Shown: positions 30,469-64,000, counted from the first letter of the stretch. The stretch: DNA of 64,000 bases from Solirubrobacterales bacterium (GCA_050258755.1 JBLMZI010000005.1:79534-143533); one strand, 5' to 3'. Translations and numbers: made by a program. Notes: generated by a model from the sequence alone, not told the origin.

Positions 30469-30510
30469 CAGATTCTCATACGTAATTACGGCCAGCTTAT
30501 CGCTCCTTTT

Positions 30511-31341: not shown

Positions 31342-31394
31342 ATGCGCTTCGGCGGCTAAGACATACGGCTTATACAATCAAGGAGGTTATTACA

Positions 31395-31688: not shown

Positions 31689-31708
31689 TTCTCGCTTCCT
31701 TCGCTCAG

Positions 31709-31745
31709 CCCCGCCCACAATCCACAGTGGGTGGGGTTACTCTTT
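31709..31745 (+). terminator. Rho-independent terminator
   Basis: CCCCGCCCAC / GTGGGTGGGG stem followed by a TTACTCTTT tail. Confidence 0.6.
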
Positions 31746-31794
31746 GGGTGTCAATACCAACCGAACTATTATCATTTCGAGGAGGCGCAATACA

Positions 31795-31827
31795 TACGAA
31801 AAGGGTGTAAGTTCAACCTACACCCTT
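31795..31827 (-). terminator. Terminator of the M-R-Vsr operon
   Basis: The reverse strand reads AAGGGTGTA GGTTGAACT TACACCCTT followed by TTTT. Confidence 0.7.
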
Positions 31828-31840
31828 TACAAGCAAATCA

Positions 31841-32326: not shown

Positions 32327-32928
32327 GATTCCAAAAGATATTGTTCCGCTTTGATGATTATTTCTTCCGCTGATTCATTCCGGGGGCGGAGCCTTTCGGC
32401 CCACGACCTACCTGGATGCAGGACATCCCAGCGTGAGACGTACTGATTATATCTACCGGAACCCGGGTCGTGGTTGCCGAAACCATCAATCAGATGATTC
32501 CATATCGGTTTGAACGTCTCAATTAACAGTGATTCAGCTAATGGAATCCAGATGTCATCAACCACAAGATACCTACATTTAAAATCGCTCAACTCAAGGT
32601 TTTCAGCTTGTTCAACAGATGAGGCGTGCTCTTGAAGCCTATTGAATAATGCTTTCCCCGGTGCGGCTCCCAGTCCGAACCCACCTTTTCGCGCGCCGGG
32701 AGGTACAGCTTTTCCGACATAAATAGGCTGTAAAAACATGTCATCTCTGTTTTGTTCGGCAATGCGGCGATAAGCAGTGAATGTACCAGTATAATACAGC
32801 GCATATATTCCCGCTCCTTCGAAAGGTTCTGCGGGAGGTAACGAACCAATTTCCCGGCTTAACATAGCATCGACAACGCTATCCGCCAAATTGCGCTTAT
32901 CTAATGGGTTGTACGGTGTTTCGCTCAT
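32323..32928 (-). CDS. GIY-YIG type II restriction endonuclease, Eco29kI-like
   Basis: Motif order GIYALYY ... PIYVGKA ... RLQEH ... LAESLLI ... PIWN, with the long GIY-to-YVG spacing I associate with the Eco29kI family. 4-nt overlaps with the methyltransferase and vsr. Confidence 0.7.
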   Translation of the reverse strand: MSETPYNPLDKRNLADSVVDAMLSREIGSLPPAEPFEGAGIYALYYTGTFTAYRRIAEQNRDDMFLQPIYVGKAVPPGARKGGFGLGAAPGKALFNRLQEHASSVEQAENLELSDFKCRYLVVDDIWIPLAESLLIETFKPIWNHLIDGFGNHDPGSGRYNQYVSRWDVLHPGRSWAERLRPRNESAEEIIIKAEQYLLES

Positions 32929-34106
32929 TGCGCCACCTCCAACCTTCGCTGTCCTTCCAATGTCCTACGGACACTTTCAACGACAATTTCTCCAAGCCTT
33001 ACAGGGACCGCGTTTCCAATCTGCCTCATACTTTCAGACCAGGAACCATCAAATGCGAAATCGTCCGGGAAGGTCTGTAATCGTGCGCTTTCCCTCACAG
33101 TGAAATACCTAACGCTACCGTCAGCTTTAACCACCATGTTTTCACCTCCAGGCACCCCATGGTCCCCGGCTTTCAATGTCTTTGCGGGTTCATCCATAGG
33201 ACTTCCTGTATGACCGTGATATGCCCGCGCACCGTCCCGGAATTCATGGTTCATTATGTTTCCGCGCTTATTAACTCTCTCGGGGTCAGGTAAGCCAACC
33301 AAAGCGTCCCTAACCGTTCTCCACGGCAGCGTAATGGGGGGGGTATCGCTTGCTTTAAGTCTACGAATACGCCCAGTTACAGCTTGCGGGTTTGTGGCAT
33401 TGCTCCTTACTCGATGACGGTCCCAATACTCACCTGAAACATATTGGCTCCATAACAGGGCACCGTAGGAATGGGTTGGTTCTGGGAAAGCCCATTCAAT
33501 ACCTAAATCGTTTCTGAACCCAACAATAAACACTCGTTCCCTTTTTTGGGGCACGCCGTAATCAGCGGCGTTAAGCATCCGGAAAACAACATTGTACGAT
33601 AACCCCTTGTGTCTACCTTGGGTATGATGTCGCTCAAGTCTGTCCAAATGCGCTGTCCATTGTTCGTTCTTTCGTTGTGTAAGCTCAGGATAGGTTACCT
33701 GAAGAAGTATGTATTCAAAATATCGGCTGAACGTTTCACGGAGTAATCCCTTTACGTTCTCGATTACTACAACCCTTGGTCTTAATTCCCTTATCGCCCG
33801 TATCATCTGGGGGAACATATTTCTGTGGTCCTCGTTGCCTCTGTGTTTTCCTCCAACAGAAAACGGCTGGCATGGCGGACCACCGGCTAGAAGGTCAATG
33901 TCGGTATACTTGGTGAAATCAATCAAAGCGACATCGCTTTCAACCAAAGGCCACTCCATTACCACAGGATTACCCCGGCGTTGGTTTAATCGGATTGTAT
34001 TACAGGCGTCGTTGTCCCATTCGACCAGTAATTTATGATTAAAACCCGCGTTTGAAATACCCAGAGCAAGTCCACCCGCACCGGCGAACAACTCAAGCGA
34101 ATTCAT
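32925..34106 (-). CDS. DNA (cytosine-5)-methyltransferase
   Basis: Motifs ELFAGAGGLALG (I), GGPPCQPFS (IV), ENV (VI), QKRERVFIVG (VIII), GNAVP (X). GGGGGAGG RBS before ATG 34106 (ORF opens at 34196). Confidence 0.9.
   Translation of the reverse strand: MNSLELFAGAGGLALGISNAGFNHKLLVEWDNDACNTIRLNQRRGNPVVMEWPLVESDVALIDFTKYTDIDLLAGGPPCQPFSVGGKHRGNEDHRNMFPQMIRAIRELRPRVVVIENVKGLLRETFSRYFEYILLQVTYPELTQRKNEQWTAHLDRLERHHTQGRHKGLSYNVVFRMLNAADYGVPQKRERVFIVGFRNDLGIEWAFPEPTHSYGALLWSQYVSGEYWDRHRVRSNATNPQAVTGRIRRLKASDTPPITLPWRTVRDALVGLPDPERVNKRGNIMNHEFRDGARAYHGHTGSPMDEPAKTLKAGDHGVPGGENMVVKADGSVRYFTVRESARLQTFPDDFAFDGSWSESMRQIGNAVPVRLGEIVVESVRRTLEGQRRLEVAQ
33336..33343 (-). repeat. C8 homopolymer inside the methyltransferase coding sequence
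   Basis: The + strand G8 run encodes Thr-Pro-Pro (ACC CCC CCC) in DTPPITLPW. Confidence 0.9.
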
Positions 34107-34296
34107 TACTTCATTCCTCCCCCGTGTAACTTGACAGTCTGGTTTTCTACCTGTATTTTCGCCTAAAATCACAAAACTCCTGCAATAACAGAACATTTGT
34201 TCCCTGGTTACCGCAACGACCTTTCAGGAAAAATCTCCTGTAAGATTGCCGTCACCACCAACGCCGCGAAACCCCTTTACCGATTTCCTAGGCACC

Positions 34297-34306
34297 GGGG
34301 GGGGGG
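34297..34306. repeat. G10 homopolymer about 190 bp upstream of the methyltransferase start
   Basis: ggcaccGGGGGGGGGGagga, read directly. Confidence 0.9.
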
Positions 34307-34471
34307 AGGAGTGATTGCTTTTTGTGTGGCTTTTTTAGATATTCTTCATTGTTGTGGTTTACTGAATGGCGATTACGTGTATTATGAAAGTACTTCGGAC
34401 CCTCTATCCGTAATCGTTGGTCCGTAGTGTTTCAATTTTATAAGCAAGAGGAAAACGCCGTAATTTCGGGG

Positions 34472-34556
34472 GCCGGAGTGGCTGAACATGACCAACGGAC
34501 TTAAAATCCGTCGATGGGTGACCATCGTACCGGTTCGACCCCGGTCTCCGGCACCA
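34472..34556 (+). pseudogene. Degenerate tRNA-Leu-like copy at attR
   Basis: It shares GCCGGAGTGGC and the 3' 64 nt with tRNA-Leu. The D-arm is GCTGAACATGACCA, so no D-stem can form, and the copy is 4 nt shorter. Confidence 0.75.
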
Positions 34557-34559
34557 CTG
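34493..34559 (+). repeat. attR core (67-bp direct repeat)
   Basis: Identical to 25835..25901. Confidence 0.9.
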
Positions 34560-34644
34560 GATTTTTCGAGGTTCTTGCTCCAGCGGCAAGACGTGAGATA
34601 CGTGAAAAATTGTAGGGCTCGTTGAGTCTCAATCGATGAACCAG

Positions 34645-34686
34645 AACCCCCTTGCCTCGCACGACGAACGGCAAGGGGTTTTCTTA
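34645..34686 (+). terminator. Terminator downstream of attR (likely the original tRNA operon terminator)
   Basis: AACCCCTTGCC ... GGCAAGGGGTT stem followed by TTCTT. Confidence 0.65.
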
Positions 34687-34923
34687 TGGGAAAAATCGTT
34701 GGCGGGTATCGAGATATAAAGACTGACGCGATTGTGCGCCAATGGTGCTAACGCAGGGCTGCGCCGGCATTCCGAACCGGTCTGCGAGTCGAACGCATTT
34801 CTAGTAAAACGGGGATAAAGACGATACAATAGAATCCAGGTAAATTATTCCTGTTCGATGAAATCGCTGCCGGGGACGGCTGATGGAGCGCGAACGGAAT
34901 TCATGGAACGAGGAGGGAACGGT

Positions 34924-36903
34924 ATGCCTGAACATGACAACAGCATTCTGCTAAACAAGGCTTCTTCACAGTATTCCAACACGGCGCGGGCAGATTATTC
35001 CGTTCCTGCGGATCACGAATCCCCGGATGTTGGGCGAGTGAAGCTCGCGGCTCAATTACCGGCGAGCGCAGCGCCGCGGGATGTATTGGCACTGCAGTCA
35101 GTGATCGGGAACCGGGCCGCGTCGCAGGTCGTTCACAATAAAACCAAGGCGCCTTTCGTGAGACCCCCGCTGAAACGTTCGGAGCAGCATGTTACTAAGG
35201 CAGATCTGGATCAGCCGGCCGTCCGTACGAAGCAGCCTGCCTCCAGTTCGAGCTCGAGTGCGTCCGATAACGTGCTTTCGGCCAACGAAAGCCCGAAAGC
35301 ACAGCCTATCGATACGAACCAGCCGGCTGCCAATCCGAGCACATCGTCCAGTTCTAATGCGAATACGGCGTCTGGGTTTCGGAGACCGGCGATTCAGCAC
35401 TTCCGCTTTTCATCGAAGCAAACGGCGCAGGGCCAGCCAACGGTTAACCCGAGCACATCGTCCAGTTCTAATACGACCGCGCCCACCGCGCAGCGCTCCG
35501 CGCCGAATGCGAGCGAAAACGGCTCGGCCACTGAAAAGGAGACGCCGATCGTCTCCCTGTGGAAGCAAATGAGCGGCAGAGAAATGAACCAGGCGCGGGT
35601 GGAACGGGAAAAACAAGAGGCTTCAAATCTGGAGAAGATCACGGATACCCATCAGAAAAAGACGAAGAGCGAACTGGAGTCGCTGGCACCCAGCAAGGAC
35701 AAAGCGCAAAAACCATCGGATTATGTAGCCGCGAAGCAAGGCACGGATGCGGGTGACATTTCCGCCACGGCAGATGATCCTCGGCTTGGGTATCAGTTTA
35801 ACCGATCATCGGACACCGGGAACTGGCTTTCCCGCAAGGTGAAGCGAGGCTGGGAGTTAACCAAAGAGGGCGGCGCCGATTTGTGGAGCAAGATGCCTTT
35901 AACCCACTCTGTGCTGCCTGGGGAAGACTATGCGACGCAGAAGCAGTCGCTGGGGGAGCGGGCCTGGGAGAGTACCAAAGCAACGGCTTCCGGCGCCCTT
36001 AGCAAAGGCGTCAGGTCGATTCCGCTGATTGGCAGCGGCGTGAAGGGCTATGATGCCTACAAAGCAAGCAAAAAAGAGGATGCGGCAAAACAAGTGGCGG
36101 AAAACGCCTCCAAAGCAAACGCGGACCCGAAGCATCCTTCGCTGCTGGAATCCATGGCGAAGGGGATGGAATCCGGGTATCACAAAGAAAAGTACAATAA
36201 GGGCGTTAATGCGGCGACCAGCTTGGTCGGAGACGCTTTGTCCGCATTAACGCTCGGCGGCAGCACCGCGGTAACCGGACCGCTCAGCAGCGCGTTGTCA
36301 AGCGTGGTGGATGTAGGGGCCTCGACCGTCAATTCAGGGTTGACCAACAGTGCCGACCTGACGACCAGTCTGGTTTCAAAGGCGATGGGTCCCAGCGCGC
36401 AGGAATCCAGGAAGCTGGTTGCCAGCAGCCATGACCAAAACGTCAGATCTGAGGCGGTGAAACAAGTGGTGAAGACCGATCCGAATGCCGCCAAAGCCAT
36501 GCTGAAACACTTGAAAAAAGGTCAGATGTCACACGATGAGGAGCTGTACACGAACACCCGTATTCAGCAGCCGAAGGGTGAGCATACAATGAAGCCCAGC
36601 CAGGTCAAGCAATTGGGCGATCAGGAAAAAGCCCGGCTTCGGCTTCGTGAAAACATGGGGGTCGATCCGCTGGATAACGCCGGCACGAAGGCGGAGAACA
36701 CCCCGCAGGTCAATCAGCAGGCAAAGCCGAAGCCAATCCTTGTTCGGCAGAAGAACGCGAAGAACCTGTTGAAGAACGACACCGGGGTCCCCGAAGCCCC
36801 GGATCTGCCGGAAATGGGTCCAAAGGAATTGCTGAAGACAAAAGTGAAACCACCCACGAAGAACAGCGGCCTCAATAAACTGATTTTGAACGATGAGTCG
36901 TAG
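34924..36903 (+). CDS. Large low-complexity hypothetical protein (Ser/Pro/Ala/Lys rich)
   Basis: GAGGAGGG lies 6 nt before ATG 34924 (ORF opens at 34858). N-terminal LALQSVIGNRAASQVV motif, Ser-rich internal repeats, and a Gly/Ala/Ser-rich amphipathic C-terminal half. Confidence 0.65.
   Translation: MPEHDNSILLNKASSQYSNTARADYSVPADHESPDVGRVKLAAQLPASAAPRDVLALQSVIGNRAASQVVHNKTKAPFVRPPLKRSEQHVTKADLDQPAVRTKQPASSSSSSASDNVLSANESPKAQPIDTNQPAANPSTSSSSNANTASGFRRPAIQHFRFSSKQTAQGQPTVNPSTSSSSNTTAPTAQRSAPNASENGSATEKETPIVSLWKQMSGREMNQARVEREKQEASNLEKITDTHQKKTKSELESLAPSKDKAQKPSDYVAAKQGTDAGDISATADDPRLGYQFNRSSDTGNWLSRKVKRGWELTKEGGADLWSKMPLTHSVLPGEDYATQKQSLGERAWESTKATASGALSKGVRSIPLIGSGVKGYDAYKASKKEDAAKQVAENASKANADPKHPSLLESMAKGMESGYHKEKYNKGVNAATSLVGDALSALTLGGSTAVTGPLSSALSSVVDVGASTVNSGLTNSADLTTSLVSKAMGPSAQESRKLVASSHDQNVRSEAVKQVVKTDPNAAKAMLKHLKKGQMSHDEELYTNTRIQQPKGEHTMKPSQVKQLGDQEKARLRLRENMGVDPLDNAGTKAENTPQVNQQAKPKPILVRQKNAKNLLKNDTGVPEAPDLPEMGPKELLKTKVKPPTKNSGLNKLILNDES
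35335..35472 (+). repeat. In-frame direct repeat within the low-complexity gene
   Basis: A 24-nt perfect repeat CCGAGCACATCGTCCAGTTCTAAT at 35335..35358 and 35449..35472 (114 nt apart) encodes PSTSSSSN twice. Confidence 0.85.
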
Positions 36904-47079: not shown

Positions 47080-49848
47080 ATGCAGTTTTTCAAACGCAGT
47101 CTGACAACCCGTTTGGTCGTGTCATTCTTGCTCCTTTCAGCGTTCACGGTGAGCGCGGCTGGGGGCATTGCCTATGCGCTTGCGCTCAAAGCGCTGAAGA
47201 ACAATATTTACGCCCGCCTGGAAGAAGCCTCCCAGCACAAGGTAGATGGCATCACGCAGTGGATCGGCGAGCAGCGGTCTCAGGTGGTTTTTATTTCCAG
47301 GATGGACGCGGTGAATGATCAAGCGCGGGTTTTAAACCGCGCTGCACCCGGCAGCGCCGAATACCGAAAGGCCGAACAGGGGCTGCGCAACCTCTTTGCG
47401 GCCGCAAACAGCAGCAACCCTTCTTTTTCCGAGGTCTTTTTACTTTCCGACATTGGGGGCAAAGTCCTTCTGTCCTCCAACCCAACCAATGAGGGGACAT
47501 ACCGGATCAACGACACGTATTATGTCATGGGACGGAAACGCACCTATGTCCAGCCGATCTATCCCTCACCGGTCACCCTGCAGCCGACTATGACCATCGC
47601 AACCCCATTAAGTGATGCCATGACCACCCCACAGAGTGAAGCCCGAGGGCAAATCCGGGGTGTTATCGCGGTACACCTGAATCTGCGGATCATGGACAAT
47701 CTGGTCTGGAGTCACTCCGGACTGGGCAATACCGGACGCGCATATCTGGTCGAAAGGAGTAATATCCTGCTGGACTTCGCCCCGACCGTATCGAACGCCT
47801 ACCGCCGGGGCGTGCATTCTCCGGCGATTGATGCCGCTACCCGGGGACAAAGCGGAAAAGGCGTTTACGTGAACCACCTGCAGCGGGAAGTCATCGGAAG
47901 TTACCGGTGGATTGAGGAAGCGGGCGTCGCACTCATCACGGAAATGGATACCGGCGAAGCACTCGGGCCGGCCCGGGATCTGGCGTGGGCCATCCTGTTA
48001 GCCGGGCTGTTTCTGGTTGGCCTGATGGCGGTCGGATTCATGATGATGTCCCGCCGAATTGCCGGACCGATTCTGGCTATCAAAGAAAGCGCGCTCCAGG
48101 TGGCGGCCGGAAACTGGGATGCCCAGGCGCCGGTTGTGTCCGAAGACGAGGTTGGCACCCTGGCCCGGGCTTTTAATCAGATGGTTCTCCAACTGAATCG
48201 ATACCAGGAGATCCTCAGCGCCAGTGAAGCTTATTTTCGGGCACTGATTGAAAACGGTTATGATATTACGCTGGTGATTAACTTGAACGGGAAGACGCAG
48301 TACTGCAGCCCGGCTGTGAAACGGGTGCTTGGTTATGACCCCGAGGAAATGCTGGAACGCTCGCCGCTGGAACTGGTTCACCCGGAGGATCGCGAACGAT
48401 TGGTGCACTCAATGACCCATCCGACGGAAGGAAACCGTTTTATTGAGTTCCGCATGCAGCATGCGGACGGGAGCTGGCGGGCGCTGGAAGGGGCCGGAAA
48501 CGCATTTGAGGCGGGCGGTGTGGTCGGATATGTGATTAACTCACGCGACATCACCATTCGAAAGCAGGCTTTATCGGCGTTGGCTGTTTCGGAAGAGAAG
48601 TTTTCCAAGGCGTTTCATTACGCGGCCGATATTGTCTGCGTGGTGCGCATGGAAGACCAGCATATTATTGAGGTCAGCGACGCTTTCTTTAATCTTCTGG
48701 GCTATCAGCCGGAAGAGGTGCTGAACCACTCGTCGGAAGAATTCCATCTCTGGGTCGACCCGGAACAGCGGCAGGCGATTTACGAGCAGCTTGGCCGCTA
48801 TGAGGCCATTCGGAATGTGGAAGCCCTGTGGCGGACGAAGAGCGGCATGGTACTCACCGGGGTGGTTTCCGCCGAACTCGTCGATATTGGGGACGAGCCG
48901 TGCCAGATCATTGCCTGGCATGATATCACGGAACAGAAGCAGGCTCAAGATGCCCTGCAGCAGGCCAACGATGAACTGGAAATGAAGGTTCAGCTCAGGA
49001 CCGAGGATCTGCTGGCGATGAATCAGGAGCTTCAGGCCATGAATGAAGAACTGATGAATACCCTGGAAACGCTCCGCAACACCCAGATGCAGCTGGTTCA
49101 ATCCGAGAAAATGGCAGCCCTTGGGAACTTAGTGGCCGGGGTTGCGCATGAAATCAACACCCCGGTTGGGATTGCCGTTACCGCGATCACCAACCTGGAA
49201 AAGCTGTCCGGTACGTTTCAGGACCGATACTCCACCAAAAACGCCACCCGGCAGGAATTGGAAAGCTTCCTGCGAGACTGCGAAACAGCGGTGTCCATTA
49301 TCAAGCCGAACCTGGAACGGTCTTCCCGGCTAATCCAGAGTTTCAAGCAGGTGTCAGTCGACCAATCCAATGAAACCAAGCGGGTTTTCAGGATGCGGGA
49401 ATATCTGGACGAAATCCTGACCAGCCTGCATCCGCTGCTTCGGAAAACGAGAATTTCGGTCAAGGTGGAGTCGGATGAGATCACCATTGATTCGTATCCG
49501 GGCGATTACGCGCAGATTATCACCAATCTGATCACCAATTCGCTGACCCATGCTTTTGATCTGGGGGCGGAAGGCATGATCAATATTGAGGTGCGGCAGT
49601 ATGGTCAGCGCATCCGGATCATCTATGCCGACAATGGCAGGGGAATGGTGCCGGAGGTGATGAACCGCATTTTTGAGCCGTTCTTCACCACCCGGCGCGG
49701 AACCGGCGGCACCGGCCTTGGCATGCACATCGTGTACAATCTGGTTACCCTGCGTCTGGGCGGATCCATTGACTGTGAAAGCCTGCCGGGGCAGGGAGCC
49801 AAGTTTATCATTTGGCTGCCGATTGAAGAGGAATTGGTTTCCGTTTAA
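47080..49848 (+). CDS. Membrane sensor histidine kinase (extracytoplasmic Cache-like domain, HAMP, two PAS, kinase core)
   Basis: Two TMs flank a ~270-aa loop. HAMP (EDEVGTLARAFNQM), PAS regions, H-box AGVAHEINTPVG, ATPase GGTGLGMHIV. Confidence 0.85.
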   Translation: MQFFKRSLTTRLVVSFLLLSAFTVSAAGGIAYALALKALKNNIYARLEEASQHKVDGITQWIGEQRSQVVFISRMDAVNDQARVLNRAAPGSAEYRKAEQGLRNLFAAANSSNPSFSEVFLLSDIGGKVLLSSNPTNEGTYRINDTYYVMGRKRTYVQPIYPSPVTLQPTMTIATPLSDAMTTPQSEARGQIRGVIAVHLNLRIMDNLVWSHSGLGNTGRAYLVERSNILLDFAPTVSNAYRRGVHSPAIDAATRGQSGKGVYVNHLQREVIGSYRWIEEAGVALITEMDTGEALGPARDLAWAILLAGLFLVGLMAVGFMMMSRRIAGPILAIKESALQVAAGNWDAQAPVVSEDEVGTLARAFNQMVLQLNRYQEILSASEAYFRALIENGYDITLVINLNGKTQYCSPAVKRVLGYDPEEMLERSPLELVHPEDRERLVHSMTHPTEGNRFIEFRMQHADGSWRALEGAGNAFEAGGVVGYVINSRDITIRKQALSALAVSEEKFSKAFHYAADIVCVVRMEDQHIIEVSDAFFNLLGYQPEEVLNHSSEEFHLWVDPEQRQAIYEQLGRYEAIRNVEALWRTKSGMVLTGVVSAELVDIGDEPCQIIAWHDITEQKQAQDALQQANDELEMKVQLRTEDLLAMNQELQAMNEELMNTLETLRNTQMQLVQSEKMAALGNLVAGVAHEINTPVGIAVTAITNLEKLSGTFQDRYSTKNATRQELESFLRDCETAVSIIKPNLERSSRLIQSFKQVSVDQSNETKRVFRMREYLDEILTSLHPLLRKTRISVKVESDEITIDSYPGDYAQIITNLITNSLTHAFDLGAEGMINIEVRQYGQRIRIIYADNGRGMVPEVMNRIFEPFFTTRRGTGGTGLGMHIVYNLVTLRLGGSIDCESLPGQGAKFIIWLPIEEELVSV

Positions 49849-55248: not shown

Positions 55249-57936
55249 CTAATGGCGGGAGACTTTTTTTGAATGTCTGCTTTTTGCCGACTTACCGGAT
55301 TCCTTTACGTGATCGACGCCCGCTCGTGACCGGAGTGGATTAAAATCCATCCATTTCCACCAGCCAAGCTGAAGAACCACAAAAACAGCCAACCAGACCC
55401 ATTCCCAGACAATCGCGCGGCCAAAGACGTTTGGAAGATGTTCATTCAAATCGCTTAATACCGCGTAAAAACCGCCAAAAGCCAGAAGCGGAAAGACTAC
55501 GGCTGATACTGTATCCATGGTTTTGGCAAAACTGGCCTGGTTGAACTCGTCAAAGGCGGTGATCTGTTCTGACACCTCTTCGTAGATGATCTGGTTTTCA
55601 AAAATATCCTGCCATCGGCGGAAGAGTTCCATCCCGTTTTCATCGTTCGTAATCTGGCTGAACCAGCTTCTGATAGTGAATTCCAGGAAGGACTCGCGAA
55701 GCACGCTGACCATGGCCCCAGCTGATTTGTTATCCTTGCTGTGCACGGACAGCTCTGACGCCATGCCCAGAAGAATGTGCCGCTGATGCAGGGCCAGCAG
55801 GGCGATGATAAAGCCTAAATCCCAGTAAACGCTTCCAGTTAACGTTTGTTGCGCGAATCGCGCATTGTCCCTTGCTGATACCAGGCCCGCGCCGTTTTTA
55901 CTGATGCAGTATGTGATCAGGGGATTTTCTTTAAAGAGCATCTTGCCCGCGAGATCGTCATTGGCCCCAATCGGCAGCTTTTCATGCCAGTCTTTATGGG
56001 ACGCCAGTTTTAAAGCGACTTCGTGGACCCGCTTCTGGTGCAGGCTGTTTGGAACCATGTTGATGGCGCTGTAAATAAAGTGATCCAGGCTGGTCATCGA
56101 GACGATCTGGCTTTTGCCAGCCGCCTCCTGGATCAGCCGAACAAAGACTTCTTTCATGTCCCGAATTCTGCGGTTGAAAGCACTCAGCTGCTCGATCGTG
56201 ATCCAGTTTGCAGGATCGCTGTTTGAGAACGGTGCGGTCTGAACAAATGGCAAATCGGAGCGGTACCCATTGCCGAGTTCGACTTCGATGACAAAGAATC
56301 CGACACCGTATCGAAACAATCCGATATATGCGTCTTTGATCCGCGCTCTGAGGCTTCCCAAGAGGGCGTGCTGCCCGTCAATTATCTGAGAACGCATTTC
56401 GTTGATAACTTGCAAAAAGGAATCTTCCGGATCGGAACCAAGCCTGAAAAAGGCGCAATGATCGGCCTTCTCATCAAATAAATAGGTTTGTATATACGAG
56501 AGAAAGAAATTGTCATGATCGTTTAACAGATATTTCGTGTAATTGAGAGCATTGACGAAGTGTTTCTCGAGAGAAGGATAATCCAAGGAGTCAAACGAAA
56601 ACGGGATCACATGCCGCGAGCTGTTGAAATCCAGCACGGGAACGTGAAAACGCTTGCTGATTTCCATGATTTCAGCAATAGGCAGCAGGCTGTAATGGTT
56701 TCCTGGCGCGTCAACGATCGTATAATTCTGGTTCCGGCCGTCGTACCAGGGATCCACATTTGTGCACCACGCATCTTTCGGCCAGCGTGCCTGGGCACGC
56801 GAGCGCCATCGCCCAATGTCAAAGTTACCTTGATCAATGAGCCGTTGTTCCGCTGCCAGTTCTGCGGCTTCCAGCGCTTCGCCGAGGCCAAGGAGGGACG
56901 TTTGGGCGCCTTCTTTCAAGGCAATGACGACGCGGTTCGTTTTCACTTCGTTGCCATTCGGGAGGGTTTGGGGTTTGGTGCCGGGCATAGGAATAAAGGT
57001 GAATTCGAAGCCCCTTCCGGAAGGGCTGCTTTTATCCGACCGGGCCCAATGCTTGTGTAACGAACAGGTCGGCGGTTCGGTGAAGAAGAGCGCGTCCGCT
57101 TCCTCCATCATAACCCCGTTTTCTGTGATTCGGGGCAGACTGACCGTGCGGTCCGGCGCGCTGCGCCGGGCCAAATCATCAGTATAGCGGCTGAAGTCGT
57201 CAGCCAGAAAAGTCATTTCAGCTTCGAAACCAGACAGAGCAACCAATTCGTTGTCATGCAGAACGGTGATATCGTTCGGCAGTTTGTCGTTGTTCTGCTG
57301 ATATCGGCGCTGCTTTTCCACAAATCCGGTTTCCATCGCCTTTATCAGGGCAAGTCCGCGATTCAGGATCAGATGATCAGCCGTATGCCGGTCCGGCGGC
57401 GCGCCGTTCGGATTGGCGTAAATCGTTTCGGCGATCACGCTGGCTATCGCATAAGGGGTCTTTAACTGCGCTCCGTCGAGAATGATCGAACCGGAATCGA
57501 TTCGATCGGCATAGTCGGCAAGGTGTCTGAAGAACGCATTGCGTACTGCGGGTTCCGGCCGCTGCTCAGCGGCGATTTCAGCATCGCTGACCGCGCACAG
57601 CAGATCCCGAAGGATATAGATCGATGCAAAACAGTCAAAATCCGGGAAGGTATGGCAGATGATCGTGAAAACGACCGCTTCACCGCTGCCGGCAGCATCC
57701 AGCGAGACATTGGCCTTTACTTTGTCTGGATGGACCAGAATCATGCCGGCTGTACTTTCGAAATGATGCGGGTCCCCCGATCTGGACGACTTGTGGTGCT
57801 GATCCAGGACACCGTACTCGTCACTGTTGCCGACATCGATGTAGTACCGGTTGCGGGCAGGTTCAAACGGCAGACCCGGCCGAACTGTGGTTCCCTGGGG
57901 GACAAACTGAAACTCAAACCGGGCTGTACGCGCCAT
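55249..57936 (-). CDS. Large hypothetical protein: DHH/MYG1-like N-terminal motifs, long middle region, CorA-like C-terminal two-TM hairpin
   Basis: GGAGGCGG RBS 6 nt before ATG 57936 (ORF opens at 58020). N-terminal motifs YYIDVGNSDEYGVLDQHH, STAGMILVH and ICHTFPDFDCFASIYILRDLL. C-terminal VVFPLLAFGGFYAVLSDLNEHLPNV...IVWEWVWLAVFVVLQLGWWKW parallels the CorA IFxPLTFIxGxYGMNFxxMPEL layout but has no GMN. Confidence 0.7.
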   Translation of the reverse strand: MARTARFEFQFVPQGTTVRPGLPFEPARNRYYIDVGNSDEYGVLDQHHKSSRSGDPHHFESTAGMILVHPDKVKANVSLDAAGSGEAVVFTIICHTFPDFDCFASIYILRDLLCAVSDAEIAAEQRPEPAVRNAFFRHLADYADRIDSGSIILDGAQLKTPYAIASVIAETIYANPNGAPPDRHTADHLILNRGLALIKAMETGFVEKQRRYQQNNDKLPNDITVLHDNELVALSGFEAEMTFLADDFSRYTDDLARRSAPDRTVSLPRITENGVMMEEADALFFTEPPTCSLHKHWARSDKSSPSGRGFEFTFIPMPGTKPQTLPNGNEVKTNRVVIALKEGAQTSLLGLGEALEAAELAAEQRLIDQGNFDIGRWRSRAQARWPKDAWCTNVDPWYDGRNQNYTIVDAPGNHYSLLPIAEIMEISKRFHVPVLDFNSSRHVIPFSFDSLDYPSLEKHFVNALNYTKYLLNDHDNFFLSYIQTYLFDEKADHCAFFRLGSDPEDSFLQVINEMRSQIIDGQHALLGSLRARIKDAYIGLFRYGVGFFVIEVELGNGYRSDLPFVQTAPFSNSDPANWITIEQLSAFNRRIRDMKEVFVRLIQEAAGKSQIVSMTSLDHFIYSAINMVPNSLHQKRVHEVALKLASHKDWHEKLPIGANDDLAGKMLFKENPLITYCISKNGAGLVSARDNARFAQQTLTGSVYWDLGFIIALLALHQRHILLGMASELSVHSKDNKSAGAMVSVLRESFLEFTIRSWFSQITNDENGMELFRRWQDIFENQIIYEEVSEQITAFDEFNQASFAKTMDTVSAVVFPLLAFGGFYAVLSDLNEHLPNVFGRAIVWEWVWLAVFVVLQLGWWKWMDFNPLRSRAGVDHVKESGKSAKSRHSKKVSRH

Positions 57937-58238
57937 TGATGTCCGCCTCCAAGCTAACGTGATTACGAATCCATACAAAGACGGTGCTAGCGGGGAAGCC
58001 GATGCTTCGCCGTAACCCATAAAGTATTTCGGCTATTAAGAGCATTTTCCTGCTCCCTGGATGAATTGACCTTGGGGGAGAATTCGACGAATGCTTTGCG
58101 GGATTCCGACACAAAAGCCGCTAATCTATCAAAAAAGGAGATAATTTGACCCATATGGCAGGAACTCGTTGGTGCAAGTGGAATATCACTCTTGGGTAAT
58201 CTCAAGGGATATTTCGATGGACCAACAGGAGGCGTTCT

Positions 58239-61200
58239 ATGTTCACGAACAATAATGGCTTAAAGGAATTTGATCTGATCTCCAAAGAACGCAGAAACAA
58301 CGAGGATCAGGACTACATCAATCTGCCTGAGGTGGTTTACGCAAAATCCCTTGAAGCCTATAACAGATATGAGAAAACCGGTGAACTGCCAGAGTACAAC
58401 TGGAACAGCACCTTCCTGAAACAGATCGGCAGGACCTACGGCGAAAAGCTGGTTGATTTCAAACTGCTGAGTTTTGTTGAGTTTACGCTGTACAAAGATA
58501 CGTATAAATCACAGAACTTTGTTGTGTTGAAAGACAATGAAACCAACCGGGTCTTTGATGCCGAAGGACAATTCATCTTACCGCGCTACCAATATGATTT
58601 TCCCGTCGACAAGGAGCATTCGAAGAAACTTTTAAATATTCTGCTCGATTACTTATATCAGACGCGATTCAAGCTGGAAAGCCATACACATTTTATTGAT
58701 ACCGGGGAACAGGTCGGGCACAGCAGTTATCAAGACGTGGATTCCTATACCAAGGCATTGCTGAAAAACTTCATGCAGGACTACGCGTTAAATAACAACG
58801 CCTATGGATTTGCCGGCTACCCAGCCATTCACTTTGCCGTTACCAGGGACGTTGTCATCATGATCGCCTTTAAGCCGATGAATAGTTTCTTTGTGGATGA
58901 CAGTATCGACGAACTCGAGAATATTTTTGATATCAGCATTGGTTTTTTTGCGAATACCCGCAAGATCTATAACTTTGAATATAAGAACCTGCTGAATCAA
59001 TACCGAGCCTATTCAATGTTTATCTACAAAAACGAGTTGGAGAGAAGTATCCGCGACTCCATTGGCGAGGCATCGTTGATTTCAAGATATTGGTACACTG
59101 AGGGTTTGCAGAAGGTAACGGAAAAGCAGGAGAAAACCAATCACGCCACCGACTCGTTTGATTTCTCGCAGATTTTCGTGAACGAGATTCTGAACGCACA
59201 GATTGACGGGGTGGAGAACATTGAGATATACCCGTTTGACCGGTGTTTCATTTTCAAAGATTCGGCGCTGATCAAGGCCGATCAAAACGATGAGGAAGAT
59301 GTGAAGCTGGTTACCTGCGAAACCTTGTTGATGAAGAAGAGTATTTCGGAGATCGAGAGCATCAAGCAGCGCAATAATTACGTGTATGAGTGGGACCGGC
59401 TGTTGTACGACATCAAGGACTATGACATTGATTACAGCAAAAAAAATGTCGAGTTCAGCGACTGGAGAATCGAATACAAAGATCGGCTTCAGTTCGAACA
59501 CAATTTAACCGAATCGTATTCCGGGCTTAAAGACGATCCGGCGAAAGCCATCGATTTCATGCTTTACAATCTGATCTGTAAAAAGGCCAGCACCAAACAG
59601 CTGCTCGAACTGGAAAAGGAATGTTTCAGCAATGATGACGGCTTGTGTTACATCTACCTCAAAAACGTGGATTTGAACACCATGCAGATGTTGACCGCTC
59701 TGCAGGAAAAATATTTGCGGGAAATTTACAAAGATGTGAAGCAGATGGAGGAGTTTCTCAGCCAGGTCGACACGAAAAACGCCAAAGTCGTTTTTGTTTC
59801 ATATGACCCGAGCAGGGTTAAGTCGGAAAACAATATTAAGATCGAGCAGAAACACGCATTCAGTATTTTGATTGTGGTCGACGCGGACATTCAAAAGAGT
59901 GTAATGGAAATTCAGTCCGAAAAAGAAGATTTAAAAACCGCGGTGAAACTGATTGTCCGGCAAAAAACCGAAGCCGCCGAGCTGGTCAAAATGGAACGTG
60001 AGAAGCAGAAAAGCTTCATTTTAAACCAACTCAAATCGACTTTGCACAGTATCAAGGGCAGAGTGCACGACATGAAGGCAAAACAGGAATTGGATCAGAT
60101 GCTGCGCGATTTCAGCCAAAAGCTGAAGGAAGATACCCTTGAACTGAAAACGACCTTGGTCAATCAAAGCACCCCGCAAGAGCGTTTTAAATGCCTGTTC
60201 CGCGAGATTACCGGCGACATGTTCGAAAGGTCGGGCGGCAGGTTGTGGGATAAAATCGTGCAGGAAATTGCGAACTCGAATGATCCCGCCTTTTTCAATA
60301 CCCGAAGAAGCCTCGAGTGCACAGACCCTTTGGAGTCGGTCGGCATCATTGTCTATGAGAGTTTCCTGCCGGAGTTTAGTATTCTGATGGATAAGATCAC
60401 ACTTCAGGAAGCCTTTCATGTCGTCCTGAAAAACACCGTGGAAGAGGCGAAATCGACCGACGACAAATTCGTGGCCATCCAGTTCAATGTTGGGTATGGC
60501 GACAAGGACCGGGGGGTTCTAAGCATCCAGCTCATCAATTCCTGTCATCCGATTACCGAAGAAAGGCTGCAGGAGATGAATACGGCGGTCGAAGAAGTCT
60601 CAATCAACGAAAACAAAGAGGGTTCAACCGGCTTTGGCGTGGCTTCGTCCCGAGCCCAGCTCACCAGCCGTTTCGGAGCAGAGGCCTCGATCAAGTACCG
60701 CCTGCTGACCAAAAACCAGATTAGCACAACCTTGACGATGCCCATTGTCTTCCTACAGAATGACACGATTTTCGGGGACGGGCGGGTTGCCCACGAGGTA
60801 AAAGAAAGCTGCAAAGTCGTTTACCTTGAAGATGAGAAAACATACTATCAGGAATCCTGCGCGTATTTGGACGGGATGATCAAAGGGCATTACCGCCATA
60901 CCACCACGGCGAACCTGTTTGAGGAATACTGGAAAAAGGCCGATATTCTCTTTACCGATATTAGCGTGCCCAACAAGGAAGGGGGTAAGGCGTCTCCAAC
61001 GTTCGGACTCAGCGCAATCAACAACTTCTTCCGATTGGGTCAGGGCAAAACCATTTTCGTGCTGTCCAACAGCGAGTCCCAGGGGATTAAAGAGGATATC
61101 CTCACGCGGAGCGGCTTAACCAGCGGCAGTATTACGGAGCAGGATATCCTGCTTGATCTAAATGAGATTAAAAAAGGGAAAATCTACGTCGCGGATAATG

Positions 61201-61985
61201 TGAAATCGATTAAGACCCTGATGGAGAACCATCCGGCGGTGATCGATTTTCTCAAGCAGCATTTTGGGATTGACGACGACGGTGAGGCGGAGCCAGTGCC
61301 GGATGACAGCGGCCAAGCGGAGGCGTATACTATCGAGTCAGCCGAAAGCTTTGAACAAATCCTGGAAACCATCTCGATGGACACGCTGGCAAGTCGGTAT
61401 GTTCTGCGAGATGTAACGAATGATCAGCTGCCGGAAGTCTTTCGAAGGTGGACCACTAAAATGATTTACCTTCCGGATATTGAGGACCAGGAGTGCCTTT
61501 CGAATCCGGATTTGGTGGATACGCTGCTGTTTATCCAATTGAGTGACTGCTCGGCGTTTAATGTCATGGACTCCACGCTGTTCGGTTTGAAAAACAACGT
61601 CGTTTTCGTACCGTCTGCCTACTCCAATACCCAGCAAGCCTGCCTTGAGATTGCCCGGCAGTATCAGGAGCGCATCAGTCTGACCAGCAGTGGGATTTTG
61701 TCAGCCCTGAACCATGATTTGGCGAAGTATGAAGATCCGGCCGTCAAAATGATTCGGGAAAAAATCATCAGCAGCAAAGCCTACACTGTCGCAAAGACCT
61801 ATAAAATCGATTCGCTGATATTGGCCGAACCGAAAGCCGATTTAGACGAACTGCGTTATATCCAGGACATTAAGCAGGAATTAGAGATCTATGCCCGGGA
61901 AACGAAAGACCAAATCCTGCTGAAACATGTTGAGAACCTAACCTTCTGCCTGACGCTTTGCCAGGCCATGGCTGGAGGTGAGTAA
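58239..61985 (+). CDS. Giant soluble histidine-kinase-like / receiver hybrid protein with unknown N- and C-terminal domains
   Basis: ACAGGAGG RBS. 1248 aa, no TM. Coiled-coil then LKSTLHSIKGRVH (His603, nt 60045). N-box-like HVVLKNTVEEA. G2-like EGSTGFGVASS. Receiver VVYLEDE...ADILFTDISVP (Asp907, nt 60957)...FVLSNS...VADNVKS. A ~240-aa C-terminal region includes ILSALNHDLAKY. Confidence 0.75.
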   Translation: MFTNNNGLKEFDLISKERRNNEDQDYINLPEVVYAKSLEAYNRYEKTGELPEYNWNSTFLKQIGRTYGEKLVDFKLLSFVEFTLYKDTYKSQNFVVLKDNETNRVFDAEGQFILPRYQYDFPVDKEHSKKLLNILLDYLYQTRFKLESHTHFIDTGEQVGHSSYQDVDSYTKALLKNFMQDYALNNNAYGFAGYPAIHFAVTRDVVIMIAFKPMNSFFVDDSIDELENIFDISIGFFANTRKIYNFEYKNLLNQYRAYSMFIYKNELERSIRDSIGEASLISRYWYTEGLQKVTEKQEKTNHATDSFDFSQIFVNEILNAQIDGVENIEIYPFDRCFIFKDSALIKADQNDEEDVKLVTCETLLMKKSISEIESIKQRNNYVYEWDRLLYDIKDYDIDYSKKNVEFSDWRIEYKDRLQFEHNLTESYSGLKDDPAKAIDFMLYNLICKKASTKQLLELEKECFSNDDGLCYIYLKNVDLNTMQMLTALQEKYLREIYKDVKQMEEFLSQVDTKNAKVVFVSYDPSRVKSENNIKIEQKHAFSILIVVDADIQKSVMEIQSEKEDLKTAVKLIVRQKTEAAELVKMEREKQKSFILNQLKSTLHSIKGRVHDMKAKQELDQMLRDFSQKLKEDTLELKTTLVNQSTPQERFKCLFREITGDMFERSGGRLWDKIVQEIANSNDPAFFNTRRSLECTDPLESVGIIVYESFLPEFSILMDKITLQEAFHVVLKNTVEEAKSTDDKFVAIQFNVGYGDKDRGVLSIQLINSCHPITEERLQEMNTAVEEVSINENKEGSTGFGVASSRAQLTSRFGAEASIKYRLLTKNQISTTLTMPIVFLQNDTIFGDGRVAHEVKESCKVVYLEDEKTYYQESCAYLDGMIKGHYRHTTTANLFEEYWKKADILFTDISVPNKEGGKASPTFGLSAINNFFRLGQGKTIFVLSNSESQGIKEDILTRSGLTSGSITEQDILLDLNEIKKGKIYVADNVKSIKTLMENHPAVIDFLKQHFGIDDDGEAEPVPDDSGQAEAYTIESAESFEQILETISMDTLASRYVLRDVTNDQLPEVFRRWTTKMIYLPDIEDQECLSNPDLVDTLLFIQLSDCSAFNVMDSTLFGLKNNVVFVPSAYSNTQQACLEIARQYQERISLTSSGILSALNHDLAKYEDPAVKMIREKIISSKAYTVAKTYKIDSLILAEPKADLDELRYIQDIKQELEIYARETKDQILLKHVENLTFCLTLCQAMAGGE

Positions 61986-61986
61986 G

Positions 61987-64000
61987 ATGCAGCGATCGTC
62001 ATATAAGAAAGCGGAAATCGTCTGGATCGATGACGTCTTCGGCCTTGAGGAAATGACCCGCCGCCTGGATTCCGGCATCAATTTCTGGGAAGAGATGTTC
62101 GGCGCTCCGGAAAAAATCTACCGCCTGATGAACATAAAAATCAAACTGATCACCAATTACAGCGATGCGATCAGCTACATCAACTCCTTGTCCCAAAATC
62201 GTTCAACGTATTACTATTTCATCGTCGACTTGACCCTCCCTAAAAACCTCGATGATTTACGAAAGAAGGAAGCCTATCCGTCCTACGGCAAAAAGATTGG
62301 CAAAAAACTTGTGGACAAGGGTTTCGCGTTTTCATTTCTGACCAGCGCCAGCGAATTGGGATCACTCCGGGCTGAAGAAAAGGATCTGTTACTGGCCGAT
62401 TTTCACATCAAGGAATACCACAAAAGCCTATCCCTGCCGGATTCTCTGAAAAACAAATTATTGTTCCACCTGCAGTCACATATCAACTGGATCAACATCA
62501 AAGAGAATTTTTTCACCAAAATCAGTGAATCGTCTAACATCAGCAATAACCAGGAAGAGGCTTTTGAGTACTTCCCGTATCTCGACGCATACAAGGATTT
62601 TGTTAATATTGCCGAATTCAACGAGTTGGACTTGAGCCATCCGATCTTTATCAAGAGCCATCTCTTCAACAACAAATACTATGAGCAGCAGTGCGTGCTT
62701 CTGCTGTTGTCCGAAACGTTCCATGTCAACCGGTACCGGAAACTGGACGTGCATTATATCGACTTATCGTTAAGCGATCCCGGTGAAAGCGATATCCGGA
62801 TGAACGAGTTCTATGCCCAATTCAAGGACAAAATTGACAAAGACGTCATCTGGATCATCAAGCTGGCCTTGCTCGACAAGAAACACTTCAAGCAGCTGCA
62901 GGAAACGCTGAGAAACCAGAAATGCATTTTCATCGTGAACGACGAAGAATATGAAAGCTATCTTGAACAGGTGAACTCCAGCTACGGACTGTCCGAGCTG
63001 CCGTACTTCAAAGACGATGACTACATCCAGAAAAAGAACCTGCTGGACCACATTCTTAACCTAAAAATCGAGGAAAAACTGGCCGACCGTGAGATTGAGG
63101 TCGCGTCCATTTACCAGGAGCACCCGGAACTGCTGATGGATGTTCAGGCTTATATCGCCTTAATCAATCCCGCATTCGGGATTCAGGAGCTGTCAGACTC
63201 GTATGAAATGGTCGAGTGGGTGGTCAAGCTGTTTAATCGGCTCGAGAAAGAGATCGTGGTCAACATGGTCCACAACCGGCCGATTTCCTATGACAAACTG
63301 ATCGGGAAAGAAATCCTGGAAAATTTGCAGAAGGCGCATTTGCAGCGGATAAAGGAAGAAAGCGCGGCTTACTGGCTGAAGACGTCCTGGGGTTTTCCGC
63401 ATGGGGTCTCGATTGATAAATACGGGCTTTCAACCGAGGCGAATGATGCGTGGGAAATGAACTCGCTGCGGATTTTATCCCATCTGCTGACTGATCTGGA
63501 CGGTACCCGGAATGAGACCCTGCGCAACCTGAAAGAGATTTTCCGCCATGAATACATTCGGACGATTGTCGATGAAAAGGACCGCCGGAAAGTCTCCAAA
63601 GAGGTCGACACCATGATCAAATGGCCGCACCGTGAATACCCGATGCCGTCGATCCTGCATAAGAAGTTTGAAGAAGACAATAAACACCTGTGGTTTAACC
63701 ATACCAAGCTGAACTATGTGAGCTACTCCCGGAAACTATCGCTGTATTTCCGTCAGCTCGACCTTTACCTGGACTATTACGACATTGTCCTGGAGTTCAT
63801 CCACAATACCTACCAGATGCTCCCCAGGATTTCACATCGGTTTATTGAAATGGCGCTTGGCGACATCACTGAGAAGAAGTTCTCCGCGAAAGACAGTGAG
63901 TTCAAGGAGGAGTTCAAGAAATACCTGTACGGCATGCTGAGTATCTCTCTGATTTTTACCGAAATAATCGAGAAAAACGAAATATCGGATATCGAGTTTT
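61987..64000 (+). CDS. Receiver-domain protein with large unknown output region (partial, continues beyond the window)
   Basis: Not in the ORF track because it has no stop. I translated it by hand: 671 codons with no stop. ATG lies 1 nt after the upstream TAA. N-terminus EIVWIDDV...YYYFIVDLTLP (Asp81, nt 62227)...FSFLTSAS...FHIKEY is a complete receiver signature. The rest has no recognised motifs. Confidence 0.7.
   Translation, partial: MQRSSYKKAEIVWIDDVFGLEEMTRRLDSGINFWEEMFGAPEKIYRLMNIKIKLITNYSDAISYINSLSQNRSTYYYFIVDLTLPKNLDDLRKKEAYPSYGKKIGKKLVDKGFAFSFLTSASELGSLRAEEKDLLLADFHIKEYHKSLSLPDSLKNKLLFHLQSHINWINIKENFFTKISESSNISNNQEEAFEYFPYLDAYKDFVNIAEFNELDLSHPIFIKSHLFNNKYYEQQCVLLLLSETFHVNRYRKLDVHYIDLSLSDPGESDIRMNEFYAQFKDKIDKDVIWIIKLALLDKKHFKQLQETLRNQKCIFIVNDEEYESYLEQVNSSYGLSELPYFKDDDYIQKKNLLDHILNLKIEEKLADREIEVASIYQEHPELLMDVQAYIALINPAFGIQELSDSYEMVEWVVKLFNRLEKEIVVNMVHNRPISYDKLIGKEILENLQKAHLQRIKEESAAYWLKTSWGFPHGVSIDKYGLSTEANDAWEMNSLRILSHLLTDLDGTRNETLRNLKEIFRHEYIRTIVDEKDRRKVSKEVDTMIKWPHREYPMPSILHKKFEEDNKHLWFNHTKLNYVSYSRKLSLYFRQLDLYLDYYDIVLEFIHNTYQMLPRISHRFIEMALGDITEKKFSAKDSEFKEEFKKYLYGMLSISLIFTEIIEKNEISDIEF

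Follow-up and report, generated by a model that had tools for sequence, protein, structure and literature searches.

A candidate phosphorelay-triggered signalling module with radical-SAM and CorA-like membrane partners in a Solirubrobacterales genome

Introduction

A two-component phosphorelay can itself serve as phage defence: Detocs, composed of DtcA, DtcB and DtcC, does so directly (10.1101/2023.01.24.525353). In type III-B CRISPR systems, a CorA membrane protein is activated by SAM-AMP (S-adenosylmethionine-AMP) and has an obligatory partner, either a phosphodiesterase (NrN or DEDD) or a lyase, which is sometimes fused to it (PMC10600005; PMC12255297). Here we analyse a locus that resembles each of these systems in part. 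It begins at position 55,249 of a 64,000-nucleotide stretch of DNA (GCA_050258755.1 JBLMZI010000005.1:79534-143533; hereafter the window), which NCBI assigns to a Solirubrobacterales metagenome-assembled genome (MAG; locus tags ACM3QZ_07065 to 07075), and it comprises four genes that we call A, B, C and D. B encodes a histidine-kinase-like protein and C a receiver-type protein; D, a radical-SAM gene, lies past the edge of the window, and A, which encodes a CorA-like membrane protein, is divergent from the other three.

We propose, and give this about an even chance, that B and C are the core of a horizontally scattered, uncharacterised signalling-effector module, usually completed by D, which would be triggered by a phosphorelay and act in defence or conflict. 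What is new, judged by analogy, is most likely a Detocs-like two-component conflict module that would borrow a CorA/phosphodiesterase effector and combine radical-SAM and membrane outputs. The original prediction, made from the window alone, had described a three-gene locus; there are in fact four, because D lies beyond. It had also held that no known annotated system spans the genes, and scans with Pfam, NCBIfam and PADLOC (2023) agree: across the four families no qualifying match appeared beyond the CorA-like half of A and the radical-SAM core of D. We found no described system with the B-C-D-A gene set in the literature.

The resemblance to Detocs lies in the order and nature of the parts. 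Like Detocs, the locus encodes a soluble putative sensor kinase whose presumed N-terminal sensor is large and non-canonical, and after it a receiver protein without a DNA-binding C-terminus; its effector parts appear modular and include transmembrane variants, and the receiver fused to B could serve as a phosphate buffer, as DtcB does. Unlike Detocs, neither B nor C is matched by a PADLOC Detocs hidden Markov model (HMM), the one match of B (PDC-M52A, E 0.026) being weak and irrelevant. There is no TPR sensor, and the receiver is fused to the kinase rather than encoded by a gene of its own; a stand-alone receiver gene, whose absence had been predicted, is found neither in the window locus nor in 19 related loci. 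C carries no PNP or other recognised toxic domain and has an AAA+-like body without a P-loop instead. The usual third component is a radical-SAM gene, and the kinase is a hybrid with a REC domain and a second invariant histidine.

The likeness to the CorA and NrN pair of type III CRISPR systems is of another kind. Here too a C-terminal CorA-like match (in A) goes with a predicted DHH-family-like phosphoesterase, in this case fused, and WYL regulators occur in related loci. Unlike the CRISPR pair, the locus has no cas10, other cas gene or array within the 64-kb window and 4.4 kb beyond it. The DHH-like domain of A was not detected as NrN, no SAM-AMP synthase is evident, and the DHH-type histidine pair of A lies N-terminal to the DxD motif and not after it. 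The original prediction had drawn this analogy with CorA and a DHH-family NrN: the CorA-like part stands, while the DHH-like module, fused inside A itself, had been missed. Its statement that cas genes and a repeat array are absent is confirmed in the window and flanks scanned, since no tandem repeat or CRISPR array occurs across the 64-kb window and no cas family appears in precomputed Pfam annotation from 10 kb upstream to about 8.6 kb downstream of B. Ophion (radical SAM, PHP and PRTase) and Ambrosia (histidine kinase, REC, MTase and HNH) are different systems.

Results

B and C always occur together. Related loci (L001 onwards) came from exact look-ups and from one scan each of genomes and of metagenomes, and we clustered their open reading frames (ORFs). 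C directly follows B in 16/16 loci with downstream DNA, and B lies directly upstream in all three loci that were found through C. The two genes are spaced by 1 nt or overlap; at the window locus the junction is GAGTAAGATGCAG (TAAgATG), with the single base between genes that had been predicted. Fourteen loci extend far enough to look for D, and in 10 of them it comes after C (the exceptions are L003, L014, L022 and L026). D accompanies B-C more often than the CorA-like gene does.

Both core families are rare. The B family has 12 members among 5.8 billion proteins, and B was found in 4 of 185,579 species genomes, belonging to Herbivorax, Sulfurimonas (two) and an Enterobacterales MAG. For C, an exhaustive profile search of 1.84 billion representatives recovered 85 clusters; 72 scored E<=1e-30, and ordinary response regulators were not drawn in.

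B is predicted to be a soluble hybrid histidine-kinase-like protein. It has no transmembrane (TM) segment (maximum hydropathy 1.25), and Pfam, NCBIfam, PADLOC and sequence or profile searches of the PDB returned no match of use for it. An AlphaFold2 model of residues 541-1248, with a mean predicted local distance difference test score (pLDDT) of 72.6, gave 133 Foldseek matches in the PDB at E<=1e-3. Histidine kinases or kinase-type sensors make up nearly all of the 50 listed, headed by RetS (5.9e-7), the hybrid LvrB, HK853, CpxA, GacS and full-length ShkA. The model supports a DHp helical hairpin joined to the CA alpha/beta fold of histidine kinases, and the family alignment places invariant residues where such a core would need them: His603 (HxIKG), Asn732 in an N-box (LKNxxE), and a G2 box, S796-T-G798-x-G800. 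After the CA unit, fragment residues 320-470 of the model follow a (beta-alpha)5 pattern, into which the hybrid-kinase matches 8vc9 and 6qrj reach. Receiver residues E864, D865, D907, S943 and K989 are invariant, except for Thr at 943 in one member. A kinase with its own receiver, as the original prediction had it, thus has both fold-level support from Foldseek and conserved residues behind it. Moreover, the three residues singled out there, His603 and Asp907 of B and Asp81 of C, are each invariant in their families.

The two ends of B are less familiar. Residues 1-550, the presumed sensor, have no match in Pfam, NCBIfam, PADLOC or the PDB and contain two invariant motifs, GEAxxIxxYWY (276-286) and YPFDRxF (331-337). 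Towards the C-terminus, His1159-Asp1160 is invariant within an H-box-like motif, S/N-H-D-L/I-x-N/K, carried on helices with pLDDT mostly 72-91; a PDB profile search of this domain returned coiled-coil noise only. His1159 is a candidate second phosphotransfer site. The motifs around the two invariant histidines look swapped relative to their usual settings (Table 1), and either histidine could be the site of autophosphorylation.

Among described proteins, B can be compared with the His-Asp-His-Asp phosphorelays that use hybrid kinases (such as ShkA, GacS/RetS, CckA-ChpT-CtrA). As in these, the predicted DHp and CA units of B stand ahead of REC in one polypeptide, and its structural neighbours are proteins of this kind. 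As in multi-step phosphorelays, a further helical domain with a conserved histidine follows, and then a separate receiver protein, C. Unlike them, B has no membrane, PAS, GAF or HAMP input, its G1 box is atypical and its Pfam matches fall below thresholds; furthermore, the output protein C is neither a transcription factor nor a cyclase.

That C begins with a receiver, as predicted, is supported by its conserved residues. D15, D16, D81, S120 and K142 are invariant in 10 close homologues; across 46 diverse members D81 never varies, and D15, D16 and K142 are each kept in 90% or more. Residues 1-150 therefore appear to be a receiver-type domain. In an AlphaFold model of the remainder (residues 150-922; pLDDT 73.6), an alpha/beta domain comes first and long stretches of helix after it. 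Foldseek matches of this model in the PDB are weak and uniform (E 2.5e-3 to 3e-2) and include RNF213, Apaf-1, ClpC, ORC, a clamp loader and NLRP3; in BFVD the best match is a replication factor C (RFC) subunit, at 4.1e-4. The Walker A motif GxxxxGK[ST] is present in 0/46 family members, and Pfam finds nothing in the same 46 but three isolated, weak, single-member matches that are apparently spurious. C is thus predicted to be a receiver fused to a degenerate AAA+-like scaffold.

This architecture recalls regulators of the NtrC type, in which REC precedes AAA+ and phosphorylation governs oligomerisation. Like these, C has a receiver followed by a predicted AAA+-fold domain. Unlike them, it lacks Walker A and B motifs, the sigma-54 interaction motif and a helix-turn-helix, and NtrC-type proteins are absent among the Foldseek matches listed. 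Two further ideas about C were set aside. A C-terminal HEPN RNase was considered, as TRNKALEH (R835-N836...H841) resembled the Rx4-6H motif in close homologues; across 46 diverse members R835 is conserved and the histidine is not, and the assignment was rejected. An association between the C-terminal domain of C and the presence of D (8/9 against 2/5) involves too few loci for a conclusion.

D is predicted to be a radical-SAM enzyme of the Elp3/RaSEA branch and is neither Elp3 nor RaSEA. It matches TIGR01210 (RaSEA) over residues 206-451 at E 2.3e-29. The score, 102.6 bits, is below the equivalog cut-off of 212.15, so D is not RaSEA itself. An invariant cysteine triad, C217/C222/C225, is spaced CX4CX2C or CX8CX2C; there is an SNNG motif too. 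The closest solved relative is Elp3, with which D shares the radical-SAM core and the three-cysteine motif in the extended spacing of the branch. In contrast to Elp3 and RaSEA, D has a unique N-terminal region of about 200 residues ahead of the core, no ArcS partner and no GNAT domain. The characterised members of the branch are tRNA-modifying enzymes.

A is predicted to join a DHH-like phosphoesterase and a CorA-like membrane protein in one polypeptide. Its family is small as well (16 proteins among the 5.8 billion). The CorA-like character that the original prediction had recognised is borne out by CRISPR-associated PADLOC models, PDLC01043 (E 1.9e-17, residues 676-820) and PDLC01174 (E 4.9e-13). 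The match covers CorA-like profile positions 257-394 only, and the N-terminal ligand-binding part of CRISPR CorA is unmatched. Hydropathy places TM helices at residues ~809-828 and ~837-855, and the sequence has no GMN motif. No Pfam family matches A itself; in 7/10 members of its family there are Pfam DHH matches, the best at E 3.1e-5 and all under the gathering score. The N-terminal module is homologous (BLAST E 2e-11) to a stand-alone protein of 318 residues in the B-C-D operon of L005, which itself matches Pfam DHH at E 2e-4. Its conserved motifs are D34xG36, D45-H47, H95xxPD99xD101, D147xG149 and an invariant DPWYDG (395-400), and the set D34, D45, H47, H95, D99, D101 and D147 is arranged like the metal ligands of DHH enzymes. 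PDB sequence and profile searches of A, of B and of the C-terminal domain of B gave noise only.

Relatives of A turn up in other company. In P0027, P0032-P0035 and P0038 the CorA-like half is fused to a TIR or Ser/Thr protein-kinase domain instead of DHH. Full-length homologues without B-C-D are found beside twin STAND/NACHT giants (L006/L007), beside a Lon-like protease (L008) or alone (L009/L010). At L006:438-12430 and at L007 (Logan DRR182646; GCA_964574195.1) an 809-residue homologue directly follows STAND/NACHT paralogues of 1606 and 1549 residues and precedes an HSP70/AAA fusion protein; PADLOC, applied to the L006 giant, gave one weak STAND_TPR match. This set may be a different system that uses the same DHH-CorA-like effector.

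The genes that accompany B-C vary from locus to locus. A family of C-terminal-TM proteins, F5, occurs in three loci, a second, F10, in two, and the N-terminal-TM family F8 in two. A Metallophos phosphoesterase is found in two loci, a mad8-like protein in L004 and a 942-residue multi-TM protein in L026. In L005 the DHH-only protein comes directly after F5. WYL/WCX regulators are present in L003, L004 and L005. The C-terminal half of A and F5/F10 have collinear motifs and a weak hhalign similarity (P 0.004-0.012); an HMM search for homology of F5/F10 to the CorA-like half returned noise only.

In L003 (Herbivorax sp. ANBcel31, GCA_030848475.1) a P-loop STAND-TPR gene in two pieces takes the place of D. 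Two ORFs of 491 and 670 residues follow B-C there (L003:6891-10480) and have the look of a single STAND-type NTPase that a frameshift or assembly error has broken in two: the former has an RNDTIGH motif and ends with a Walker A motif (GERGTGKT), and the latter has a Walker-B-like LIILDGIDE at its start and TPR repeats at its end. WCX-domain regulators and AgrB come next. Upstream of B-C-D in L004 (5665-8482), an AAA_5 ATPase of 451 residues and a 489-residue partner have a McrBC-like arrangement; PADLOC recognised neither, and the partner has a homologue at the edge of L005 (1-645). Two related loci from metagenomes encode a multi-TM GGDEF diguanylate-cyclase-like protein beside B-C-D (L024:9586-10470, L025:336-1433).

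Discussion

How might such a module work? We infer the direction of phosphotransfer, the activating cue, the substrate of D and the wiring of A to B-C-D. B would sense an intracellular cue, most plausibly a phage or invader component, through its 550-residue N-terminal domain, and its kinase core would autophosphorylate at His603. The phosphate would pass to Asp907 in the receiver of B, either as a relay step onward via His1159 or into a built-in phosphate sink, and then to Asp81 of C. Phosphorylated C, a receiver on an AAA+-like scaffold, would change conformation or oligomerise and turn on an output. This output would be the radical-SAM protein D, translationally coupled to C; in the source genome the membrane protein A, with its presumed CorA-like pore and DHH-type phosphoesterase, would be a further output, as the local form of the optional membrane and phosphoesterase partners. 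The expected result would be growth arrest or death of the infected cell.

By analogy with known conflict systems, a defence role is plausible. The extremely patchy, cross-phylum distribution, the interchangeable accessory genes and the WYL regulators would fit it, as would the links of A to TIR and STAND contexts and its kinship with a CRISPR ancillary effector.

A number of observations weigh against a defensive phosphorelay. Several concern the chemistry. GHKL ATPases contact adenine through an Asp in the G1 box; the B family has an invariant Asn767 there (12/12 members), with no GxG after it. This substitution could alter nucleotide specificity or lower kinase activity. Since the top structural match, RetS, has also been described as a non-canonical kinase, B might perhaps be no conventional ATP-dependent kinase. 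Pfam HATPase_c is found in 2/12 family members (best E 0.0027), and B itself has no Pfam match. The models of B and C are moderate (pLDDT 73-74, pTM 0.38-0.49). An hhalign comparison of the B family with E. coli CheY sets D12/D13 and D57 onto E864/D865 and D907, non-significantly, at about 1% probability; the receiver of C aligns in register with the REC of B, equally at about 1% and non-significantly.

Other points concern the genomic setting. The original prediction had proposed to ask whether homologues sit in defence islands; PADLOC found known defence genes in none of the nine B-C-locus neighbours tested, and no PADLOC (2023) model matches B, C or D, the irrelevant weak match of B aside. 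No C homologue was found on plasmids, phages or IMG/VR contigs. Around the window locus there is no integrase or transposase, and the flanks consist of metabolic genes. Codon usage is host-like, the GC content at third codon positions (GC3) being 0.61-0.65 for A-D and 0.62-0.67 for neighbouring genes. In L013, a Sulfurimonas MAG, B-C-D stands alone between apparent housekeeping genes (by eye, an RluA-like pseudouridine synthase and a DEAD-box helicase). Finally, B-C has an A-type gene beside it only at the window locus and in L005, where just the DHH part is present. The co-occurrence expected of all three genes therefore holds for B and C, always found together, and not for A, present with them in two loci.

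This last point bears on whether A belongs to the module at all. A-type genes occur in only two B-C loci and have unrelated partners elsewhere, and the membership of A is for this reason uncertain. The four genes could comprise two independent units, a B-C-D module and a neighbouring membrane effector gene, which we consider possible though on balance unlikely. Such a division would suit the divergent orientation of A, its own terminator hairpin and its backbone-like GC content, unlike that of B-D, as well as the full-length homologues that do without B-C-D (L006-L010) and the relatives that carry TIR or protein-kinase domains of their own; most B-C loci, L013 with its bare B-C-D among them, have no A-type gene. 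Yet in L005 the homologue of the DHH module sits inside the B-C-D operon after F5, an arrangement that resembles a split A, and in other B-C loci the equivalent positions are taken by analogous C-terminal-TM proteins (F5, F10) or by Metallophos phosphoesterases. The similarity of F5/F10 to A that would strengthen this argument is collinear, weak and unconfirmed by the HMM search. The readings weighed here are not all mutually exclusive. A quite unlikely one has no defence in it: a specialised cytoplasmic two-component relay, responding to a metabolic or stress cue, would control a radical-SAM enzyme that modifies RNA or tRNA, and here an ion channel as well. The tRNA-modifying enzymes of the Elp3/RaSEA branch suggest it, and the host-like codon usage, the metabolic and housekeeping flanks, and the lack of known defence genes among tested neighbours and of homologues on plasmids or phages all agree with it. 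A sparse distribution across phyla misfits a housekeeping role, however, as does the exchange of accessories (membrane proteins, phosphoesterases, the mad8-like protein, WYL/WCX regulators), with D replaced or absent in 4/14 loci. Moreover, the closest named relatives of A are CRISPR ancillary CorA models, and its family includes TIR fusions.

The least probable of the readings dispenses with the phosphorelay. B would then be a pseudokinase scaffold, and the degenerate folds of B and C would act as interaction modules, much like RetS-type or pseudo-receiver proteins, in a constitutive complex with D. Asn767 in place of the G1 Asp, without GxG, points that way; so do the best structural match of B, RetS, a non-canonical kinase, the missing Walker A motif in 46/46 C-family members, and the near failure of Pfam models to detect the domains of either protein. 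What speaks against it is the pattern of conservation. H603, N732, the G2 glycines, both acidic pairs, D907, D81 and the conserved lysines have been kept while their surroundings diverged to 20-25% identity, with S943 and S120 kept less strictly than the other phosphochemistry residues. Pseudo-receivers, by contrast, are described as typically losing such residues (PMC12632262). Very unlikely, in our estimate, is an elaboration in which the B-C relay feeds a CRISPR-independent immune pathway with a second messenger: D, with C as scaffold, would make a SAM-derived nucleotide signal that opens CorA-like membrane effectors such as A, and the fused DHH domain, or the stand-alone DHH and Metallophos enzymes of sister loci, would clear it.

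If B-C-D does prove to be a defence system, it would be the second two-component phosphorelay known to serve directly as an immune switch, after Detocs and structurally unrelated to it. Its intracellular sensor domain would be new, its receiver protein would have an AAA+-like body that lacks a P-loop, and its output would be a radical-SAM enzyme. The pair of CorA and phosphodiesterase, so far described as an accessory of type III CRISPR systems, would also be found in a setting without Cas10. Such a pair outside CRISPR raises the question of which ligand gates these pores. Were the messenger pathway real, SAM-AMP-type CorA signalling would extend beyond Cas10, and the messenger would be the first immune one made by a radical-SAM enzyme. 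Even if a defence role were disproved, the result would tie dark-matter families to some biology. At about 85 clusters among 15 billion proteins, rarity limits the practical reach.

Locus structure and flanking genes

The ORFs, their boundaries and their features are collected in Table 1. The sizes and positions that had been predicted for A, B and C (895, 1248 and more than 670 residues) are reproduced by ORF calls, as is the 302-bp divergent spacer. C is open at the window edge, with 671 of its 922 residues inside. We completed it from the same contig in public assemblies (L001), found by an exact-sequence look-up of B; the overlap is identical, at an offset of 48238. This remainder of the contig, which the original prediction had proposed to obtain, continues with D and then with pflB and pflA.

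Table 1. Features of the locus, in window coordinates
Feature	Position	Strand	Basis or remark
Stem-loop	55182..55214	-	15-bp stem just past the A stop; tail U-rich, interrupted
Gene A, 895 aa	55249..57936	-	Predicted DHH-like phosphoesterase module and CRISPR-type CorA-like membrane module
A aa 676-895, CorA-like part with 2 C-terminal TM helices	55249..55911	-	PADLOC models, hydropathy
A aa 1-440, DHH-like module	56617..57936	-	Weak Pfam DHH in relatives, L005 homologue, conserved motifs
A-B divergent intergenic region	57937..58238	.	302 bp; GGAGG ribosome-binding site before the B ATG
Gene B, 1248 aa	58239..61985	+	Putative soluble hybrid histidine-kinase-like protein
B aa 1-550, N-terminal domain	58239..59888	+	Presumed sensor; alignment
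B aa ~555-840, predicted DHp + GHKL/CA	59901..60758	+	AlphaFold model, Foldseek, motif columns
B His603 motif	60045-60059	+	HxIKG in the DHp helix, resembles HPt consensus HxxKG
B codon 767 (Asn, G1 box)	60537-60539	+	Family alignment
B aa ~858-1010, predicted REC	60810..61268	+	(beta-alpha)5 in model, receiver residues
B aa ~1055-1248, small alpha/beta unit + helical domain	61401..61985	+	Alignment, model helices
B His1159 motif	61713-61730	+	S/N-H-D-L-x-N, resembles HisKA H-box
Gene C	61987..64000 in window; window-equivalent end 64755	+	Full length from L001:13749-16517
C aa 1-150, receiver-type domain	61987..62436	+	D15-D16, D81, S120, K142
C aa ~220-450, AAA+/clamp-loader/STAND-like alpha/beta + helical lid	62644..63336	+	AlphaFold model, Foldseek
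Gene D	Window-equivalent 64770-66260, beyond window	+	496 aa, 14 nt 3' of gene C

The hairpin that had been noticed beyond the stop of A is real: in a 101-nt segment of the minus strand the minimum free energy is -27.8 kcal/mol (z -3.1), and 0/200 shuffles were equally stable. It is likely the intrinsic terminator of A. A simple terminator scan did not list it because its T-run is non-contiguous. A promoter scan of the A-B spacer gave nothing exceeding shuffle expectation. The longest ORF for A would start at an ATG at 58020, 84 nt further upstream, for 923 residues and a spacer of 218 bp; the 895-residue start is favoured, being used in public gene calls and coinciding with the Met at which the family alignment opens.

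The base composition of the locus is less distinctive than it had seemed. The GC content is 52.3% for A, 46.6% for B, 46.3% for C and 49.2% for D, and 53.0% for the backbone (sd 3.6% per kb); the hand count of 38-43% for 58.2-64 kb was too low. The description of the locus as AT-richer stands for B and C, which lie below the backbone, and fails for A, which equals it; the signal is weak, with host-like GC3 and with an equal-length backbone stretch elsewhere reaching a GC content as low as 46.9%. Since GC3 is host-like, the lower GC content of B-D reflects proteins rich in Lys, Asn, Ile and Glu and not foreign codon usage, and an AT-rich island as a sign of recent transfer is weakened accordingly.

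To the left of A lie genes for a Cu-amine-oxidase-N1/DUF6612 protein, a pectate-lyase-like protein, an amidohydrolase and a dCache-HAMP-PAS sensor kinase. This last is a conventional membrane histidine kinase (dCache_1, HAMP, PAS, HATPase_c) encoded at 47080-49848, 5.4 kb left of A. It is unrelated to B and shares its length of 922 residues with C by coincidence. A second stretch of low GC content, 46-49% like B-C, spans 26000-35000 in the window and contains ORFs of 311, 253, 755, 201 and 423 residues.

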